Below are positions 12,364 to 19,923 of a stretch of 20,000 nucleotides of DNA, piece after piece; the first letter of the stretch is position 1, and every line of letters starts with the position of its first letter. Under the pieces are notes generated by a model. That model ran no database searches. It saw only the letters and a program-made list of their open reading frames with translations, and was not told the origin of the DNA. The position numbers and the translations under genes were made by a program. Source of the stretch: an uncultured virus (IMG/VR IMGVR_UViG_3300033075_001055) (lineage: Duplodnaviria > Heunggongvirae > Uroviricota > Caudoviricetes); the IMG/VR virus record IMGVR_UViG_3300033075_001055; one strand, 5' to 3'.

Positions 12364-13797
12364 TTAGCTCATCAGGGCGGCGAATTTCTCACCGCGGTAG
12401 GCAGCGCCCAAATCTGGACGCTCCATGCAAATCGTGCGCGCCATCTTGTGCGCGGGTTCGTTCGGGTTGGTCTTCTTGCGCTCAACAATCAGGCGCAAAA
12501 TCTCTTCGCCAGCGGTCTCGGCTTCCATCTGCACAGTTCCGCCGCGCTCGAAGTTCACAGACAGCCCGTTGTGCGTCAAACGCTGCGACATAGCCGCCTT
12601 GGTGACGTAGGTTCCTTCCGGCGCCAGGGCATCGCGAAAATCAGCTTCGCCGTTCTTTTCGTAGCGAGCCTGGAAGCGCTTGCAGGCGGCTTCATCGGTC
12701 TCACCCTTGCGCGGAACAATGCAGCCGGCTTCGAACGCGCGAGCCACAGCCACTTGTGCATCGGACTTGCGGCGCGCGGTCTGGATGTCGTTCAACTGAC
12801 GCTCCATCTCGACGCGAGCGGCGCGCTCCCTTTGCAGTTCCTGCGCCACAGCTGCAACCGCTTCCCGGTTCGCGCGCTCCATGATCACGTTGGCTTGCGG
12901 CGGATTGTCCACTCGCGTCGGTGCGCCCGGAATCACGATCGGATCCTGACCCATCGCGACTTTGTTGTCCTTGTCCGGCTCGGGGTGCGACTGCGACTTG
13001 TCTTTGTCCGCGTCGCCGGCTTCCATGTGGCGCTCGAACTTGGTGATCGCGTCTTCCGGCTTGTCTTCCATGGTCACACCGGCAGCGGCCATCGCCCGCT
13101 TGCCGAAGTGCTCATAGATTTTGGTCAACTGCGCGGCGGCATCTTCGTCTTCCATGCAGCCCGCTTCCATCCGGTGCTTGCTCATCTTGATCTTGGTCAT
13201 CATCGAACCTCGCTCGTACTTGATTTCACAGCCGTCGAGAAACGGCTTATCGGTCCAGGCCAAGCCCTGCGCCAATGGTCCGATGGGGTTGTTATGCTGA
13301 TCGGTCGCGTCCGTCAGAAATTCCGGGGACGTGCGCCGGACAAGTTTCTTTTCCCAGAGACTGCGCCCGAGGTCGGTCAATTCGCACCGATAGACGTAAT
13401 TGCCATCGTCAGGCGGGTCCCCGTTGTCTGGGCGAGGAAGATCGGCTTCCGTAGGAGGCTGCACACTAGGGTCATGGCTGCCGACTTCTACGACCTTGCC
13501 GCCCTTCCACGTAACCATCACGCTGTATTCGGCGGTCTTGAACTGCGCCTTATCAAACGCTTTGTCGTGGTGTCCAAGCGTGCAGGGTAGGTTGTCCTTT
13601 TGCGCGCCGAACGTCCGCGTAATCCGTCGACAGTTCTCTTCGTTGAGCAAAGATTTTTGCTCGAACGGTTCACCGTCGGGCCCTATCACCATTTTGATGT
13701 AGGGCTCTTCGCTCATCACGCACCATTGATCCCAGACCCCGGTCGGTCCGGATGCGTTAGGCGCGCCCGCGGTAGGCGATGTGGGCAGTGGCGGCAT
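12364..13797 (-). CDS. Prohead protease-scaffold fusion (Mu gpI-like)
   Basis: Start ATG 13797 (TAATG overlap), 477 aa. LPCTLGH, CELTDLGRSLWEKKLVRRTSPEF and GLAWTDKPFLDG motifs, followed by a charged helical scaffold region. Confidence 0.85.
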   Translation of the reverse strand: MPPLPTSPTAGAPNASGPTGVWDQWCVMSEEPYIKMVIGPDGEPFEQKSLLNEENCRRITRTFGAQKDNLPCTLGHHDKAFDKAQFKTAEYSVMVTWKGGKVVEVGSHDPSVQPPTEADLPRPDNGDPPDDGNYVYRCELTDLGRSLWEKKLVRRTSPEFLTDATDQHNNPIGPLAQGLAWTDKPFLDGCEIKYERGSMMTKIKMSKHRMEAGCMEDEDAAAQLTKIYEHFGKRAMAAAGVTMEDKPEDAITKFERHMEAGDADKDKSQSHPEPDKDNKVAMGQDPIVIPGAPTRVDNPPQANVIMERANREAVAAVAQELQRERAARVEMERQLNDIQTARRKSDAQVAVARAFEAGCIVPRKGETDEAACKRFQARYEKNGEADFRDALAPEGTYVTKAAMSQRLTHNGLSVNFERGGTVQMEAETAGEEILRLIVERKKTNPNEPAHKMARTICMERPDLGAAYRGEKFAALMS

Positions 13798-14732
13798 TAG
13801 CTCGCGACTGCCTCCGTGAGATCGATCAAAACGGTGGTTTGCCCGCCAATGCGATTGCGAATTCGCAACGCACCGCCGCTGGCAAACACACACAATTTGG
13901 TCGGCGTATCAGCAGCATCCAGGGTTGTGAACGTCAGCCCGTTCAAACTCGTCGCTGCGTTGTCGGCAAAACTGAAAGATCCACCGGTCGCCGCGGTCGG
14001 TCCAACTGTTGTCACCGTTCCGTGACCGCCTTTAGTAATGGCGATGTCCACGAATGCTTGATCCGCCAGCGTGACGGCGCCAAACCATCGGCGAACGTGA
14101 GCAGTGCCGCTAGTCGAAGCGTTCTTTTCTGACAGCAGATCACTGGTGTCAAATTGCAGACCGGCCGCCTGCCCGCTGATCGCGTACGCCTTCACTTTGC
14201 CGCTAACCGCAGTCGGAGTCGCGGCCGTGGTTAGAATCAGGTTCGTAGCACCGACCGTGCTGGGAGTCGCGCCAATCGGACCCGGCGCCGACAGCAGATC
14301 GTCCGTGCCGCCAGCCCGATGCGTGGGCGCGTGCGCGGTCAGACTTCCGCTGGACGATGCGCCCTGGTGCCAATACCAGTATGTGCCCATCCACTCAAGC
14401 GCGGCTGAGCCCCAATTCTGGTTGATGACAATGGACGCGGCGCCGTTGATGAGTGCGCCCGTGCCTGTAATCGTGATGTTGTTCGTAGCCGCGTCGCCCG
14501 TGCCGTCGAAAATGCGCAGAAAGCGCGAACCGGGAATTGTGCTCAGACCAGACGCGGCAGGCAGAGCGATCGTGCTCGGACCGGCAGGCGAACGTTGCAC
14601 GACCAGCGTGTAATCGGAGTCTTGCACAGTCAGGTCATCGGACGTGACCACGACCCGCGCGCCGGTCTGAAGTAATCCAGCGGTAAACAGGAGTTGCGCT
14701 TGGTAATCGAGTACTGCGTTAGTGCCCGGCAT
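13797..14732 (-). CDS. Fibre/spike-like structural protein
   Basis: 311 aa, Thr/Ala/Gly-rich. TIALPAA...IFDGTGDAATNNITI...INGAASIVINQNWGS...W domain; HAPTHRAGGTD motif; C-terminal DTPTKLCVF...RIRNRIG. Confidence 0.7.
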   Translation of the reverse strand: MPGTNAVLDYQAQLLFTAGLLQTGARVVVTSDDLTVQDSDYTLVVQRSPAGPSTIALPAASGLSTIPGSRFLRIFDGTGDAATNNITITGTGALINGAASIVINQNWGSAALEWMGTYWYWHQGASSSGSLTAHAPTHRAGGTDDLLSAPGPIGATPSTVGATNLILTTAATPTAVSGKVKAYAISGQAAGLQFDTSDLLSEKNASTSGTAHVRRWFGAVTLADQAFVDIAITKGGHGTVTTVGPTAATGGSFSFADNAATSLNGLTFTTLDAADTPTKLCVFASGGALRIRNRIGGQTTVLIDLTEAVAS

Positions 14733-16170
14733 TTTTTGCCTCCGCGCCCTTCGACGCTGGTTCTTCTTTTGGTGGACCCACTGCGCCGGGTCCCGCTAGG
14801 ACGTTGCCCAGCACGGCATCGCCGGCTTTCACTGATTGCGTAGCGCCCGGTATCCGATCGTCCCCGTCAGCAATCTTGCGCCCGGTTCGCTGACTGATTT
14901 CTTGAATGCTCGCCGGGAAACCAATAGACGCGAGCTGGACGTATTCGCCGATGATTTCAGTCGTGGTTGGCGCCGGGCTCGAAGTCTTCCAACCAAACAC
15001 GCCGCTACAATTCTCAAGATGCTCAGGGGAGCAACCGAACGCGCGGCAGAGGTTGTCTTTGTTGAATCGCAGCGACGGTCGCAGCGTTCCCTTACTGATG
15101 GACGTTGCCAGCTGCGTGCCATCGGGAACGCGATAGATATGCGCCGTCGTCGCGTGTTCCTTGGATGCGCCGTATGAGCCGGTACCCTCGCCCTGTGTTT
15201 GGGCAAGTAGCGAACCGGTAATCAGCACCGACAGGTCATCCTTCGCCATCTGGATAACCTTCGGGTGAATTTCGTCGGCGCCTTTCACTTCCCCGAGCGG
15301 CTTAACTTCCATTTCGTTAAGCCAAATCGGAATCTTGCCCTGACCCCAATTCGTGATCGCTTCGTCGAGAATTGAGCGCTCTTCGTCCTGGTCTAGAATT
15401 TCCTTTTCGACGAACACTCCGATTTGTGGAATTCCATACAGGTGCATGTAGATGAGCAGGTCTGCCCATCCTTGCTGTAGCGCGTACTCGATCCAGATAC
15501 CGGCAGTCATCCAACCGCGACGTTCTGTGATCCCATCGCCTAGGCAGCGATGAAACAGAATCTTCCCGTCTGGCCAGTGCAGAACGCCTTCGCCTTCGTT
15601 GCTGTATAGCCCGGGCTGGTCGCCGTCCAGGGTGAAGCGAAAGCACTTCTGATGAATCGCTTCCATGGACACGGGAACGAACGAGGGAACGGCGTAGTCT
15701 TTGCCCTCGCAGCGGAACCTGATCACGCGCTCTTCCCAGAACTGTTCTGCGCCTGCGTACCCGTAGGCACTCGCAGACAGCAACTGATAAACCGCGTCCG
15801 GCCAGATGTCCCGCATAGAGGTCTGGTTCAGGATCGCGGTCTGCCACGCACTAACGAGTTTCGCCGTGGGGTCGTCTTCGAATTCTCGCGGGGGATCGAT
15901 GCGCCATGGGCTCGTATCGTTGACCGCCCACGCGCGCCGGAAGTGCATGCACGCTTGAATGTGGCTGTTGCGCTCTATGACCTGTTCACAGAGGTCAGCC
16001 CAGCGCCACGGAAGACCCGCGTGCGCTTCTTTGCGATAGCGTACGATGAGTTCCGGGGTCAGCCCTTCGCCTGGGTACGTGCTCCAACGCGCGGGCGTGG
16101 GACCGATGCCAAGACCGATCCGACGCTTGAGCGCATCGAACGCCATAAGCGCCCGCTGTTGCCTGCCCAT
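14719..16170 (-). CDS. Portal protein (Mu gp29/DUF935 family); start uncertain (16146, 16170 or GTG 16266)
   Basis: EGLTPE...AG...DLCEQVIERNSHI...RR, YGYAGAEQFW, LYGIP, LITGSLL...GSYGASKEH motifs. Confidence 0.9.
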   Translation of the reverse strand: MGRQQRALMAFDALKRRIGLGIGPTPARWSTYPGEGLTPELIVRYRKEAHAGLPWRWADLCEQVIERNSHIQACMHFRRAWAVNDTSPWRIDPPREFEDDPTAKLVSAWQTAILNQTSMRDIWPDAVYQLLSASAYGYAGAEQFWEERVIRFRCEGKDYAVPSFVPVSMEAIHQKCFRFTLDGDQPGLYSNEGEGVLHWPDGKILFHRCLGDGITERRGWMTAGIWIEYALQQGWADLLIYMHLYGIPQIGVFVEKEILDQDEERSILDEAITNWGQGKIPIWLNEMEVKPLGEVKGADEIHPKVIQMAKDDLSVLITGSLLAQTQGEGTGSYGASKEHATTAHIYRVPDGTQLATSISKGTLRPSLRFNKDNLCRAFGCSPEHLENCSGVFGWKTSSPAPTTTEIIGEYVQLASIGFPASIQEISQRTGRKIADGDDRIPGATQSVKAGDAVLGNVLAGPGAVGPPKEEPASKGAEAKNAGH

Positions 16171-16255
16171 GGACAGACCAGGAACACGCGCAGGCGGACC
16201 GAACCCCGAAAGGGGCGCGGGCGGTCCCGGCGGAAATCCTGGCGTTATTCCCGGG

Positions 16256-16272
16256 CTGGCATGCACATTGCA
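16256..16272 (+). promoter_or_regulatory. Sigma-54 -24/-12 motif 1
   Basis: CTGGCATGCACATTGCA; GG-N10-GC spacing; consensus YTGGCACGRNNNTTGCW. Confidence 0.7.
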
Positions 16273-16296
16273 TTGATACCAAGCGATCGGAACCAA

Positions 16297-16312
16297 TGCA
16301 AGCACTGTGCCG
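16297..16312 (-). promoter_or_regulatory. Sigma-54 -24/-12 motif 2 (points to the portal operon)
   Basis: CGGCACAGTGCTTGCA; GG-N10-GC spacing. Confidence 0.7.
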
Positions 16313-16317
16313 TACTT

Positions 16318-16334
16318 TTGGCACGAAAAGTGCT
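16318..16334 (+). promoter_or_regulatory. Sigma-54 -24/-12 motif 3 (points to terminase)
   Basis: TTGGCACGAAAAGTGCT; one mismatch to consensus. Confidence 0.7.
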
Positions 16335-16352
16335 TTTCCCGTCGCTAACCGC

Positions 16353-16381
16353 TTGACACATTTTTTTGCACGGGCTAAGCA
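16353..16381 (+). promoter_or_regulatory. Possible sigma-70 promoter towards terminase
   Basis: Perfect TTGACA at 16353-16358, but only a weak -10 (TAAGCA) at 17-bp spacing, overlapped by sigma-54 motif 4. Confidence 0.25.
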
Positions 16382-16393
16382 AGTGACATGCCA
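16378..16393 (-). promoter_or_regulatory. Sigma-54 -24/-12 motif 4
   Basis: TGGCATGTCACTTGCT; GG-N10-GC spacing. Confidence 0.7.
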
Positions 16394-16481
16394 TCAGGTT
16401 CAAGTCACAGGCAAGCCAAGAGCGACCGAGGCAGACAGGACGCGGAGGCGCGCGAACTCGTGCCGATTCGACTGTCTAACT

Positions 16482-16497
16482 TGCAAGAGTCAGACCG
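16482..16497 (-). promoter_or_regulatory. Degenerate sigma-54 motif 5
   Basis: CGGTCTGACTCTTGCA; GG and TTGCA correctly spaced but the -24 box is poor. Confidence 0.3.
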
Positions 16498-16517
16498 CGC
16501 ATTTGTCGAAGCATCTT

Positions 16518-16533
16518 TGCAAGCTCTGTGCCG
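16518..16533 (-). promoter_or_regulatory. Sigma-54 -24/-12 motif 6
   Basis: CGGCACAGAGCTTGCA; 15/16 identical to motif 2. Confidence 0.7.
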
Positions 16534-16559
16534 CGGGGAACTCGGGAACCCTGACCTAT

Positions 16560-16576
16560 AGCAAGCGCCGTGCCAA
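16560..16576 (-). promoter_or_regulatory. Sigma-54 -24/-12 motif 7
   Basis: TTGGCACGGCGCTTGCT; exact match to YTGGCACGRNNNTTGCW. Confidence 0.8.
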
Positions 16577-16588
16577 CCTGATATGCTA

Positions 16589-16608
16589 CAGCGGAGTCGA
16601 GGCCGCTG
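16589..16608 (+). promoter_or_regulatory. Hairpin over the terS ribosome-binding site
   Basis: CAGCGG-AGTCGAGG-CCGCTG ending 3 nt before ATG 16612. Confidence 0.5.
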
Positions 16609-16611
16609 CAC

Positions 16612-17310
16612 ATGCCAGATACTAGAGCCATCCGCCTTCTGATTGCAGAAGGACACAGCCCACAGTACATCGCCGAACAAACAGGCGCAGACGTTACCGC
16701 GGTACAGCAAGCCATCGCGGACGAGGCGCCAGACCTGCGCACAATCAAGCGCGACCGCATCGCCCAACTTACGGCGCTGATGCGGACGGCAGACGAGCCC
16801 AAACAACGAATGTCTGCCCTGCGTCTGCTGTGCAAAATCGACGGCAGTATGAATCCGTCAGAGCCCACGCTTTACGACGAAATCTGGGCGATGATCGCGC
16901 GCATTGACGATTGGGAATTGCCGCCAGATGTCAAGCCGCCCCGGGTTGCGCAAAACGAGGGCGAGCGCATTCGATGGCGTGCGACGCTTCAGAAACTAAA
17001 GCGATTGCTGACCCGCGCAGATGACCACATCGCCGCGTTCGAACGCATCAAACAGCCTGCCGGCGGGGTCATCGATGCGAACACGACGACGGAGGAAAAG
17101 ATCGGGCGCATGTCCGCAATTCAGCTTTACGCACAGGAAGTCGGCGCACTCGCGCTCCGGGTCGCATCCACGAACCCGACGGCATCCCCTGCCCAGCGAG
17201 CAGACAGCATCGGGAAACTTGTGCAGACGTTGGGCGGCAACCACAACAATGCAGAGGCTTCCGAGTGGGGCGAAAAGGTGCTTGACAACATGGGCGGCAA
17301 AAGCACATGA
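16612..17310 (+). CDS. terS: Putative terminase small subunit (N-terminal HTH)
   Basis: 232 aa; HTH AIRLLIAEGHSPQYIAEQTGADVTAVQQAI; helical remainder; ATGA-coupled to terL. Confidence 0.6.
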   Translation: MPDTRAIRLLIAEGHSPQYIAEQTGADVTAVQQAIADEAPDLRTIKRDRIAQLTALMRTADEPKQRMSALRLLCKIDGSMNPSEPTLYDEIWAMIARIDDWELPPDVKPPRVAQNEGERIRWRATLQKLKRLLTRADDHIAAFERIKQPAGGVIDANTTTEEKIGRMSAIQLYAQEVGALALRVASTNPTASPAQRADSIGKLVQTLGGNHNNAEASEWGEKVLDNMGGKST

Positions 17311-19205
17311 GCCGTGCCCACCTTCGCACCCTGAAAACGATCGCGCATCTGTACGATCCGCGACAGCGCTACTTGCATATGCGGCTGGAGTTGCGAACCA
17401 CGGCGGGGCGCAGACTGCTATCCGGCGGCGGCGTCTGGGACAAGTTGGAACGGCGCTGGGTCACGCCGCTGCACATGACCGTTTTGCAGGAGGGCGAACT
17501 TGCGACGGCTGACGAATCGAAAATCGGGCGGGCGCATATCCTGACCGTCGAGGATTCGCAGATTGAATACGTGCTGAATTTCGGGCAATGGCTGTATGCG
17601 TTTCTTCATGACCTGCCCCGCCCCGCCTTCGTCGATGTCCTCGCCGGCAAACGTCGCGGCGGCAAGACCTGGGTGATGGTCGCGTGCATTGTCCTTGCCG
17701 CGGTTGCGGTCCCGCAGCGTGTCCAGAAAGATGGAAACGTTCTGGGGTTCGTCTGTTGGCTGGTCGTGCCTGGCTACCCGGAACAGCGTGAGATCCATGA
17801 AGACGTGATGGCGGTTCTTGCCACGCGGCGCGACTTGGCCAGCCGTGAGACTGCGGACGTGTTGAGTAAATTGCCCGGCAGTTGGCGCAGCGAGACCGAT
17901 TCTTGGTGGATGTATCGCCCGACGCCGCGCAATTGCTACCAATTTGCGCATGGGTCCGAACTCTACCTAAAGAGCGCGAACCGGGCGGAGTCGCTGAAAC
18001 AAGGGCGCGTGGACCTAGTCGGCATCAACGAAGCGCAAAAGGTCGACGGCGAGGCAGCGATCCACAGCGCCGGCAACACGCTGGATACGGGCGGTCTCAC
18101 GATCCTCGCGTGTAACCCTCCGCGGCGGTCCCGGGGCGCGTGGGTGCTGGAAATCAAGTTCGCAGTCGATGAAAAGCGCGTCACTGACCCCGCGGATGGT
18201 AAGCCTGTGGTCCGCTGGTTTACGGTCGACCCCGAGAAAAACGCGCGCATCAACCAAGCGAGCCGAGGCAAGTACCGAATCTTTGCCGGGACCATCAATC
18301 CGAAACTTGCCAACGCGGACGCAGACGCGGAGTGGAACCAGTTGCAAGACGTGGTGTTCTACAAGTTCGGGCAGGACAACGTGATTCCGTCCGTGCCTCC
18401 GACCTGGAAACCATGCACGGGCGAGGTCATCGCCGCGATGCGACTGCGTGACAACATCCGCCACCCGACGACGTACACCAGTTTCGGCGGCATGGACTTT
18501 AACAAGTCGCCTTGGTATGCCGTGCTCGGGCTCAAAGCGTATCGTGTCCCAGAGCGCGCCGATCAGCTCGTCTACGTCGTCGACCGCGAATACCGCAATG
18601 ACCCGGACGGCGAACAGGGCAGGACAGAACGCGAGGTCATAGTCGAGTTGTGGCGCAAGGGCTGGGATCCACTGGAGGTCGTCATCATCGCCGACCCGTC
18701 TGGACAATGGCAGAACAGCGAGAGCCGGCAGCGGGGCGGCGTCTCAGCCGGTCACAGTTCGTTTGACCTGTTCCGGTCCGAAACGATTGCAGAGCAGGAC
18801 GGCGAAACGGCGACCATCCCGGCATGGGATATGCATGCTCCGACGACTTGGAAAGCGAAAGACTCCAAGCACTACGCGCATCCCCGCAAGGTCGAGACCA
18901 TTGACGAGATCAACGAACTCTTCCGCACCGCGCGTCTGTACGTCCTGGCCGACTGCAAGCACCTAATCGAAGCCTGCAAGAAAGCGCCCGGGGACCCACA
19001 TGAACGCGGAGTCACAAAAAACCTGCGCGACCTGTGGCACATCATCGACGCTCTGCGCTATCCTATTCACCGCGCACAATCGGCAATGGAGCCGAAACAC
19101 AAACCGAGGCGAGATGGACCAACTACAAAAGCACCGACGACAAGCCAGAAACGAGGACCGCTTGGGGGGCAGAGACTTGGCGGGGCGCGACGATTTGCCG
19201 GGTGA
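17307..19205 (+). CDS. terL: Terminase large subunit
   Basis: 632 aa; Walker A VLAGKRRGGKT, Walker B VDLVGINEAQ, coupling motif LACNP, nuclease FGGMDFN and C-terminal HIIDALRY. Confidence 0.92.
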   Translation: MSRAHLRTLKTIAHLYDPRQRYLHMRLELRTTAGRRLLSGGGVWDKLERRWVTPLHMTVLQEGELATADESKIGRAHILTVEDSQIEYVLNFGQWLYAFLHDLPRPAFVDVLAGKRRGGKTWVMVACIVLAAVAVPQRVQKDGNVLGFVCWLVVPGYPEQREIHEDVMAVLATRRDLASRETADVLSKLPGSWRSETDSWWMYRPTPRNCYQFAHGSELYLKSANRAESLKQGRVDLVGINEAQKVDGEAAIHSAGNTLDTGGLTILACNPPRRSRGAWVLEIKFAVDEKRVTDPADGKPVVRWFTVDPEKNARINQASRGKYRIFAGTINPKLANADADAEWNQLQDVVFYKFGQDNVIPSVPPTWKPCTGEVIAAMRLRDNIRHPTTYTSFGGMDFNKSPWYAVLGLKAYRVPERADQLVYVVDREYRNDPDGEQGRTEREVIVELWRKGWDPLEVVIIADPSGQWQNSESRQRGGVSAGHSSFDLFRSETIAEQDGETATIPAWDMHAPTTWKAKDSKHYAHPRKVETIDEINELFRTARLYVLADCKHLIEACKKAPGDPHERGVTKNLRDLWHIIDALRYPIHRAQSAMEPKHKPRRDGPTTKAPTTSQKRGPLGGQRLGGARRFAG

Positions 19206-19923
19206 AGAGCTGGACCGCGACGATCCCAGCCTGCCTGATATCATGCTGAGCGAGTTCACGCGAACGGCGGCGGCTTTCGGGCCAGACACCGCCGCGAAGT
19301 ATGCCGCGGCTGAACTTCTATCTAAACTCACAGGTCGCGAACGCCGTCTTATCGAGCTGCGCTATGGATTTAACGATGACGGTAATGGGCTTACGCAACG
19401 TGATGTGGGGCGCCACTTTGGAATTTCCGCCGGTCGGGCCCAGCAGATCGAGCACAAGGCGCTTCAGCGAATCCATCGCCATTTCCGGGATTGTCCGTGC
19501 CACGACGACAGATCGATACACCGACCGTCGCCCATGCGGACAAGGGCATTAGAGGGAATCGCCGCCAGCAAAGCAGCACGACAAGAGGCCGAGCAGGTCA
19601 TTATCCGCGCCGAATGGGCGGCCAAGCACGCGGCTGAAATCAAACGTCAGACCACAGATAGACATCTCCAACTCGTTGACCGCGTAACGACTAGCCTCAA
19701 GTTCCATGTCTTGCGCCTAGCTAAGGACGCAGCCAAGACCGGAGCGGTCCCGAGCAATGACAATATCGCAGCGTGGGCGCAGGCAATTTTGTCCAGCATG
19801 GCGCCGACGGCGAAGGTCCCTCTGTTCGTCGCCCGCACAGAGGACGACGGCGCGACCTCACTATGCGGATTGGATGCGATGATCGACGACATATGCAGAA
19901 ATCACAGGCTGGAATGGTGGTAA
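19114..19923 (+). CDS. Stand-alone sigma-70 region-4 (HTH) protein with unknown C-terminal domain; start uncertain (19114, 19195 or 19243)
   Basis: LSKLTGRERRLIELRYGFNDDGNGLTQRDVGRHFGISAGRAQQIEHKALQRI aligns with RpoD-type region 4; no region 2 is recognisable. Confidence 0.8.
   Translation: MDQLQKHRRQARNEDRLGGRDLAGRDDLPGEELDRDDPSLPDIMLSEFTRTAAAFGPDTAAKYAAAELLSKLTGRERRLIELRYGFNDDGNGLTQRDVGRHFGISAGRAQQIEHKALQRIHRHFRDCPCHDDRSIHRPSPMRTRALEGIAASKAARQEAEQVIIRAEWAAKHAAEIKRQTTDRHLQLVDRVTTSLKFHVLRLAKDAAKTGAVPSNDNIAAWAQAILSSMAPTAKVPLFVARTEDDGATSLCGLDAMIDDICRNHRLEWW

Follow-up and report, generated by a model that had tools for sequence, protein, structure and literature searches.

A two-strand array of sigma-54-type boxes over the divergent portal and terminase-operon starts of an uncultured caudovirus

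The stretch analyzed here (hereinafter the window) comprises 20,000 nucleotides of DNA from an uncultured virus of the Caudoviricetes (IMG/VR IMGVR_UViG_3300033075_001055). It codes for a phage structural module, with a Mu-type portal, capsid and sheath on the (−) strand and a terS-like HTH gene together with terL on the (+) strand. Sequence searches of viral contigs, bacterial genome contigs and cultured phages returned no relatives of the window. The genes bordering the feature under study are:

14719–16266 (−): portal gene, Mu-type (Portal_Mu, E = 1.4e-31)
16388–16561 (+): 57-aa gene, first of the terminase operon; predicted helical hairpin, under purifying selection
16612–17310 (+): terS-like gene with an N-terminal HTH, placed before terL with a 4-nt overlap; the PHROG HTH match is weak (E = 0.0027)
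17307–19205 (+): terminase large subunit gene, terL (phrog_2, E = 5e-13)

The portal most likely starts at the GTG at 16266–16264 because the GTG starts of its relatives sit 11–13 codons ahead of the same PPG motif. Its segment 15501–16266 differs from that of the relative L001 by 44 synonymous changes and a single non-synonymous one. The terS-like gene finds no family in the protein atlas and owes its name only to its position and the weak HTH match. Elsewhere in the module, a 311-aa gene (13797–14732, −) with portal and protease-like neighbors is 62% identical to its counterpart in L001, as compared to 94–99% for those neighbors, and occupies a variable slot; 3′ of terL lies an ORF with a sigma70 region 4 domain (19114–19923, +), where L001 has another gene.

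Around the divergent starts of the portal and the 57-aa gene we find seven boxes of the sigma-54 (−24/−12) type, with coordinates running from GG to W:

16258–16272 (+): site 1, strict box, antisense to the portal and spanning −6 to +9 of its start codon
16297–16311 (−): site 2, strict box oriented toward the portal, with a −12 element that is also the predicted −35; the predicted +1 (16286) lies 20 nt before the GTG
16320–16334 (+): site 3, GGCA-N7-TGCT, facing the terminase operon; predicted +1 (16345) 43 nt before the ATG at 16388
16378–16392 (−): site 4, strict box, antisense over the ATG of the 57-aa gene (−10 to +5) and its predicted −10 element
16482–16496 (−): site 5, degenerate box within the 57-aa gene
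16518–16532 (−): site 6, strict box within the 57-aa gene
16560–16574 (−): site 7, strict box with the top matrix score, overlapping the stop codon of the 57-aa gene

All seven motifs named in the original prediction thus lie where, and on the strands that, it had placed them, and the five described as GGCA-N6-TTGCW do fit that pattern. Every box has the form GG-N10-GC-W, with five being strict (the consensus tested is YTGGCAC and TTGCW). The predicted concentration at this locus is also borne out: the five strict matches of the array are all that the 20 kb contain, as against a mean of 0.58 and a maximum of 3 in 100 shuffles of the window, and a mean of 0.02 and a maximum of 2 in shuffles of the local 420 nt, none of 3000 reaching five. 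A matrix derived from other viral arrays puts its six top scores on six of the seven boxes, the degenerate site 5 falling below the cut-off. The assignment of the motif to sigma-54 gains sequence support from the asymmetry of the boxes, which have GG on one side and W on the other in 7/7 cases, and from the consensus that emerges at unconstrained positions of the viral arrays (see below). On sequence grounds the array is genuine, exceeds chance and is conserved in part. Beyond the 15–16-nt motif the copies have nothing in common; they are unevenly spaced and belong to no larger repeated unit. The region has no Rfam matches and no unusual RNA fold (z = −1.9). The predicted placement between the portal and terminase genes stands, but the 320 bp hold the 57-aa gene and are hence not gene-free: the intergenic DNA amounts to only 121 bp (16267–16387) and 50 bp (16562–16611). 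The core of the array is sites 1–4 in the 121-bp divergent gap, with sites 2 and 3 standing back to back across 8 nt.

The 57-aa gene is mostly missed by gene callers, and its exact product is absent from the protein collection. Compared with L001, it shows nine synonymous and no non-synonymous changes (p about 3e-6). It has a homolog with 70% identity (P0213) and a syntenic one before the terS-like gene of L021 (L021:2950–3165, −; E = 9e-5, 0/5000 shuffles). The structure model displays a helical hairpin (pLDDT 75.5), with neither a Pfam nor a fold match. Helical proteins of this type are found directly 5′ of terS in two lineages whose portals are 49% apart, and they could be packaging accessories. 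Descent from an RHH protein was ruled out (hhalign probability 0.1). A 109-aa ORF running over the array (16296–16625) was likewise rejected: it matches only itself, and the frames other than that of the 57-aa gene show mostly non-synonymous changes. The 57-aa gene weakens the argument that seven sites are more than two promoters require, since two of the seven fall inside coding sequence and a homolog has lost them: the protein sequence of P0213 is incompatible with the −12 C of site 5 and with one G and the −12 C of site 6.

Among the near relatives with available DNA, only L001 carries the array. At 90–92% DNA identity to the window it keeps all seven sites, with none of 16 substitutions in 356 nt falling on the 63 core positions (p = 0.04); site 4 has one synonymous flank change and site 6 two spacer changes. 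A more diverged variant (P0001 and P0213, possibly from different genome types) was judged from proteins rather than DNA. The gene call for the P0001-type portal extends upstream over sites 1 and 2, and the forced nucleotide changes can be read from this extension. Site 1 has 0/17 positions forced to change, though its conservation, like that of site 4, coincides with coding constraint. Site 2 keeps 6/6 constrained core positions, its forced changes being three in the spacer and one in the flank, and 14/24 positions of the linker between the two sites are forced to differ. A further contig, X17, at about 86% identity, aligns up to 16272, diverges until 16387 and realigns over the 57-aa gene.

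A more distant set is formed by 22 relatives with 49–65% portal identity and upstream DNA (L002–L024 without L008). Conservation of the motif in relatives had been set beforehand as a test, and its outcome partly counts against the original prediction: in 22/22 the array is missing next to the portal, with at most one GGCA-N7-TGCW per 400 nt, and it is also missing in four still more distant loci (27%). At the same spot, 19 of the 22 have an RHH-like gene divergent to the portal. The profile for these was built from seven of the genes, with L005 being an independent match (E = 5e-14), and it finds no match in this interval of the window or L001. The RHH label is itself weak (Pfam E = 0.015–0.11, below cut-offs), and a regulatory role is assumed. 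Inverted repeats with arms of 6–9 nt precede the RHH-like gene in 6/7 tested cases, whereas the best arm in the window is 5 nt. In L021 the order is portal, RHH-like gene, 57-aa homolog, terS-like gene and terL, and the window has this same order minus the regulator only. Three relatives (L002, L003, L020) have neither the RHH-like gene nor the array. RHH repressors acting with an operator at a divergent promoter are familiar from P22 Arc/Mnt and CopG. The 19 relatives match these switches in position and layout, and we propose the same job for the boxes, although, unlike those systems, the window has neither an RHH gene nor the palindrome, and its 57-aa protein is not RHH-like. L013 and L024 have a palindrome, TGGCA-N7-TGCC, some 40 nt ahead of the ATG of the RHH-like gene; either strand of it gives GG-N10-GC, and it might be an intermediate between an operator for an RHH protein and a box for sigma-54.

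The divergent gap also has two candidate promoters of the sigma70 type:

16273–16301 (−): candidate sigma70-like portal promoter (weak, inferred); TTGCAT, 17 nt, TATCAA, 6 nt before the GTG
16353–16381 (+): candidate sigma70-like terminase-operon promoter (inferred); TTGACA, 17 nt, TAAGCA, 6 nt before the ATG

Their predicted −10 elements match at 4/6 (portal) and 2/6 (terminase operon) positions, and both score below a sigma70 consensus scan, which finds no promoter in the array region. What both start codons of the window share is TTG at −35 and TA at −12, with 17-nt spacers. Among the relatives, TTGAC lies about 37 nt before the portal GTG in all 11 distinct upstream sequences shown, with TA about 13 nt before it, and TTGAC or TTGGC lies 37–38 nt before the small divergent gene in 8/9 relatives shown. 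This spacing would correspond to the layout of a leaderless sigma70-type promoter. A Shine-Dalgarno-like stretch is present at terS and terL and is found at neither the portal nor the 57-aa start, which fits leaderless starts rather than transcripts from sites 2 and 3. Sites 1 and 4 overlap both start codons along with these predicted promoters, which are negative in the consensus scan.

Scans for three copies of the motif yielded at least 122 viral loci and at least 123 loci in bacterial genome contigs, counts that do not translate into a per-base rate. Among the viral matches listed, 110 are not tandem repeats and 70 include an opposite-strand site; in the same matches T precedes GG in 312/330 sites and Y follows GGCA in 322/330, neither base being part of the search pattern. 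As a spacing control, the pattern was lengthened by one spacer base; a complete scan then returned 49 loci, all of which lack an opposite-strand site, and T stands before GG in only 17/54. Two-strand arrays are common in viral contigs and rare in bacterial genomes, where an opposite-strand site was seen in 2/123 of the matches listed. Both of these bacterial bins encode rpoN and both regions carry phage-like genes; the two arrays may be prophages or misbinned phages. The back-to-back gap of 7–12 nt usual in viral arrays is also seen in the window. When two arrays were compared with cultured phages by BLAST, all matches were short and attributable to chance, and three T5-like phages had at most 2–3 scattered sites in the 12–16 kb examined. 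The mostly open-access literature searched describes no phage with an array of sigma-54 sites.

To our knowledge, no sigma factor of bacteria other than sigma-54 keeps RNA polymerase on DNA in a non-firing state, and we know of no job for most sigma-54 sites. The pool of sigma-54 in the cell is small. In PMC4591121, sigma-54 binding is reported to be mostly inactive, a site lying over another promoter to repress it, and intragenic sites in E. coli to show no roadblock action; promoter-level antagonism by sigma-S is described in PMC4330354. The boxes studied here have the same consensus and spacing as the bacterial RpoN sites of the former report, for which it gives binding without activation and repression on overlap. 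Unlike them, the phage has several boxes in both orientations within 320 bp, set on two divergent start codons with no activator nearby. This precedent of closed-complex binding and repression on overlap leads us to read sites 1–4 as a block on divergent late promoters. Among the uses that had been suggested for the array, silencing fits best, but its roadblock form is excluded by the E. coli intragenic sites (PMC4591121), and we put promoter occlusion by sites 1 and 4 in its place.

The motifs, their geometry, their conservation pattern and the swap against the RHH-like gene lead us to posit, with a probability of roughly 0.4, that host sigma-54 polymerase, in closed complexes, keeps the late promoters shut for as long as these complexes are not outnumbered by genome copies. 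The boxes would hold the polymerase in closed, non-firing complexes. Of two putative divergent sigma70-type promoters, probably leaderless, the start points are overlain in antisense by sites 1 and 4, and the −35 regions are covered, or closely flanked on the upstream side, by sites 2 and 3. Occupancy would shut the head/tail and terminase operons together, and the boxes would take over from the RHH-like gene and palindrome that most relatives have at this position. Replication would multiply the boxes beyond the capacity of the small sigma-54 pool to occupy them, and repression would be released by titration, making the array a copy-number timer; sites 5–7 would be lineage-specific extras. 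Several observations favor this reading: both start codons lie within antisense boxes, the cores of sites 1 and 2 survive in the diverged variant, the RHH-like gene of 19/22 relatives is absent in the window and L001, and no Sigma54_activat domain is seen in the 26 array-bearing records. Against it stand the weakness of the predicted promoters and the three relatives that have neither gene nor array. Furthermore, the occlusion model may not extend to other viral arrays, as sigma70-like promoters occur within 22/62 of them versus 17.5/62 in shuffles, with no clear excess.

An alternative is that sites 2 and 3 are genuine back-to-back sigma-54 promoters, served by a host enhancer-binding protein or an unrecognized phage activator, with the remaining sites tuning or adding to them. 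Their predicted starts precede the two start codons by 20 and 43 nt, and the −12 box of site 2 stands where the relatives have TTGAC. There is a precedent in Pseudomonas phage YuA, which likewise has −24/−12 signals in its structural region: its record (NC_010116) is annotated with single −24/−12 late promoters, and one sigma-54-like promoter was mapped by sequencing according to PMC10914365. However, YuA has single dispersed sense promoters, a sigma70 promoter before terS, only one strict site in 58.7 kb and no array; neither it nor DSL-LC04 or HTVC023P has an array at the terminase. Moreover, both leaders lack a ribosome-binding site, the 8-nt gap probably makes joint occupancy of sites 2 and 3 doubtful, and in the complete phage genomes G004 and G005 10/10 strict sites fall in one cluster rather than before each operon. 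An IHF-like site with one mismatch lies at 16266–16278, but such matches are at chance level (9 found, 6.1 expected). A domain search agreed with the earlier statement that no activator gene is present in the window, and the Sigma54_activat domain was not detected either in 26 viral records with arrays, 11 of which are at least 90% complete. Pfam may have missed an activator, given a phage protein that resembles enhancer-binding proteins without a GAFTGA loop, as described in a 2026 preprint (10.64898/2026.10.06.757011). We consider true promoters unlikely.

Less likely again is a role of the array as the place where packaging starts or the genome ends, with bound sigma-54 holoenzyme, in either orientation, serving as an architectural, end-protecting or DNA-pulling factor. 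The cosB of phage lambda, a terS-proximal region with IHF host-factor sites, offers a parallel in having repeated protein-binding sites beside terS, as the boxes are predicted to be; unlike in cosB, the factor would be sigma-54 polymerase, and what is seen here is boxes rather than a cut site or terS-binding repeats. The linkage to the terminase speaks for such a role: flanks from 80 of the at least 122 viral loci have a terminase within 2.5 kb in 47 cases, versus 10/80 loci with a sigma70 consensus pattern, though these controls favor low-GC phages and the ORF length cut-offs were 130 versus 140 aa. The array is upstream of terL in 44/44 cases, across 10 terL groups unlinked at 40% identity (none alignable to the window terL at E = 1e-5) and with mixed site orientation, and 11/80 arrays as against 1/80 control loci lie within 60 nt of a contig end. 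Yet one clade makes up about 30 loci, and with kin collapsed the link shrinks to 14/41 versus 10 of about 70 control contigs (p = 0.016, i.e., about 0.02, with 72 set by hand). Late promoters too lie upstream of terS, so the terminase link cannot separate the models. Repeats break assemblies. Contigs from two runs cross the array of the window unbroken, L021 has the identical gene order without an array, and the sites show no 10.5-bp helical phasing (Rayleigh p = 0.11; the phasing analysis gives a signal at 13 bp). A slim chance is left to the boxes being operators of a phage-coded DNA-binding protein (the terS HTH, the 57-aa protein or a factor encoded elsewhere) that merely resemble the sigma-54 consensus. 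GCA-N7-TGC is indeed palindromic, the L013 and L024 palindrome reads GG-N10-GC on both strands, and terS has an HTH, but 7/7 sites are asymmetric in the manner of sigma-54, unrelated phages share the consensus down to the flanking T and Y among the matches listed (unlike the 17/54 of the control for T), and L001 keeps all sites despite replacing the sigma70-region-4 ORF after terL. Slimmer still is the chance of a pure decoy, whose sites would do no more than draw sigma-54 polymerase away from stress genes of the host. In many viral arrays sites stand face to face across 1–6 nt (36/49 gaps), such that they cannot all be promoters, and no activator was found in the 26 array-bearing records; against this, the gaps in the window are 24 and 43 nt, a decoy would have no reason to overlap both start codons or to replace a regulator gene, and seven sites are few beside the over 250 that the E. 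coli chromosome has for sigma-54 (PMC4591121) until the genome is amplified.

If occlusion by sigma-54 closed complexes is correct, it would provide the phage with a gene-free timer of late expression and make infection dependent on the host rpoN level. Arrays of the motif, so far unexplained, occur commonly in uncultured phages. It is conceivable, though on balance somewhat unlikely, that many unrelated phages converged on non-firing host sigma-54 polymerase as a late or packaging gate released by copy number, the present phage representing a step of repressor replacement. This locus contributes an overlooked gene, boxes lying over both start codons and the exchange with a regulator gene. It constitutes a small test case of 121 bp and two divergent genes, with relatives having an ordinary regulator at the same spot, and since the box consensus is common to E. 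coli, reporter testing would be direct in laboratory strains.

The arrays found elsewhere vary considerably in form. Loci L036, L040, L041 and about 28 similar ones have alternating arrays that lie upstream of genes for a 130-aa terS-like protein, a peptidase-type endolysin and terL; cultured phages gave no relative of this phage clade. L105 (G005:31207–31494) has ten same-strand sites, mostly with 26–28-bp spacing, which are the sole strict sites in a complete 55.9-kb genome. In a Desulfovibrionaceae bin with rpoN, a seven-site two-way array (L461:11667–11922, G001:C235) lies near integrase and primase-like genes, a candidate for which a host group can be named. In L458 (G002:C75:296000–315999), 46 GGCA-N7-TGCW sites are spread over about 16 kb between small genes, most of them on one strand; its 383-kb contig, from a bin labelled Chitinophagales, is likely a large phage. 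Finally, six portal proteins (P0011, P0015, P0018, P0020, P0021 and P0023) are fused at their C-termini to a PF13563 domain, which we take to be that of the 2′-5′ RNA ligase family.
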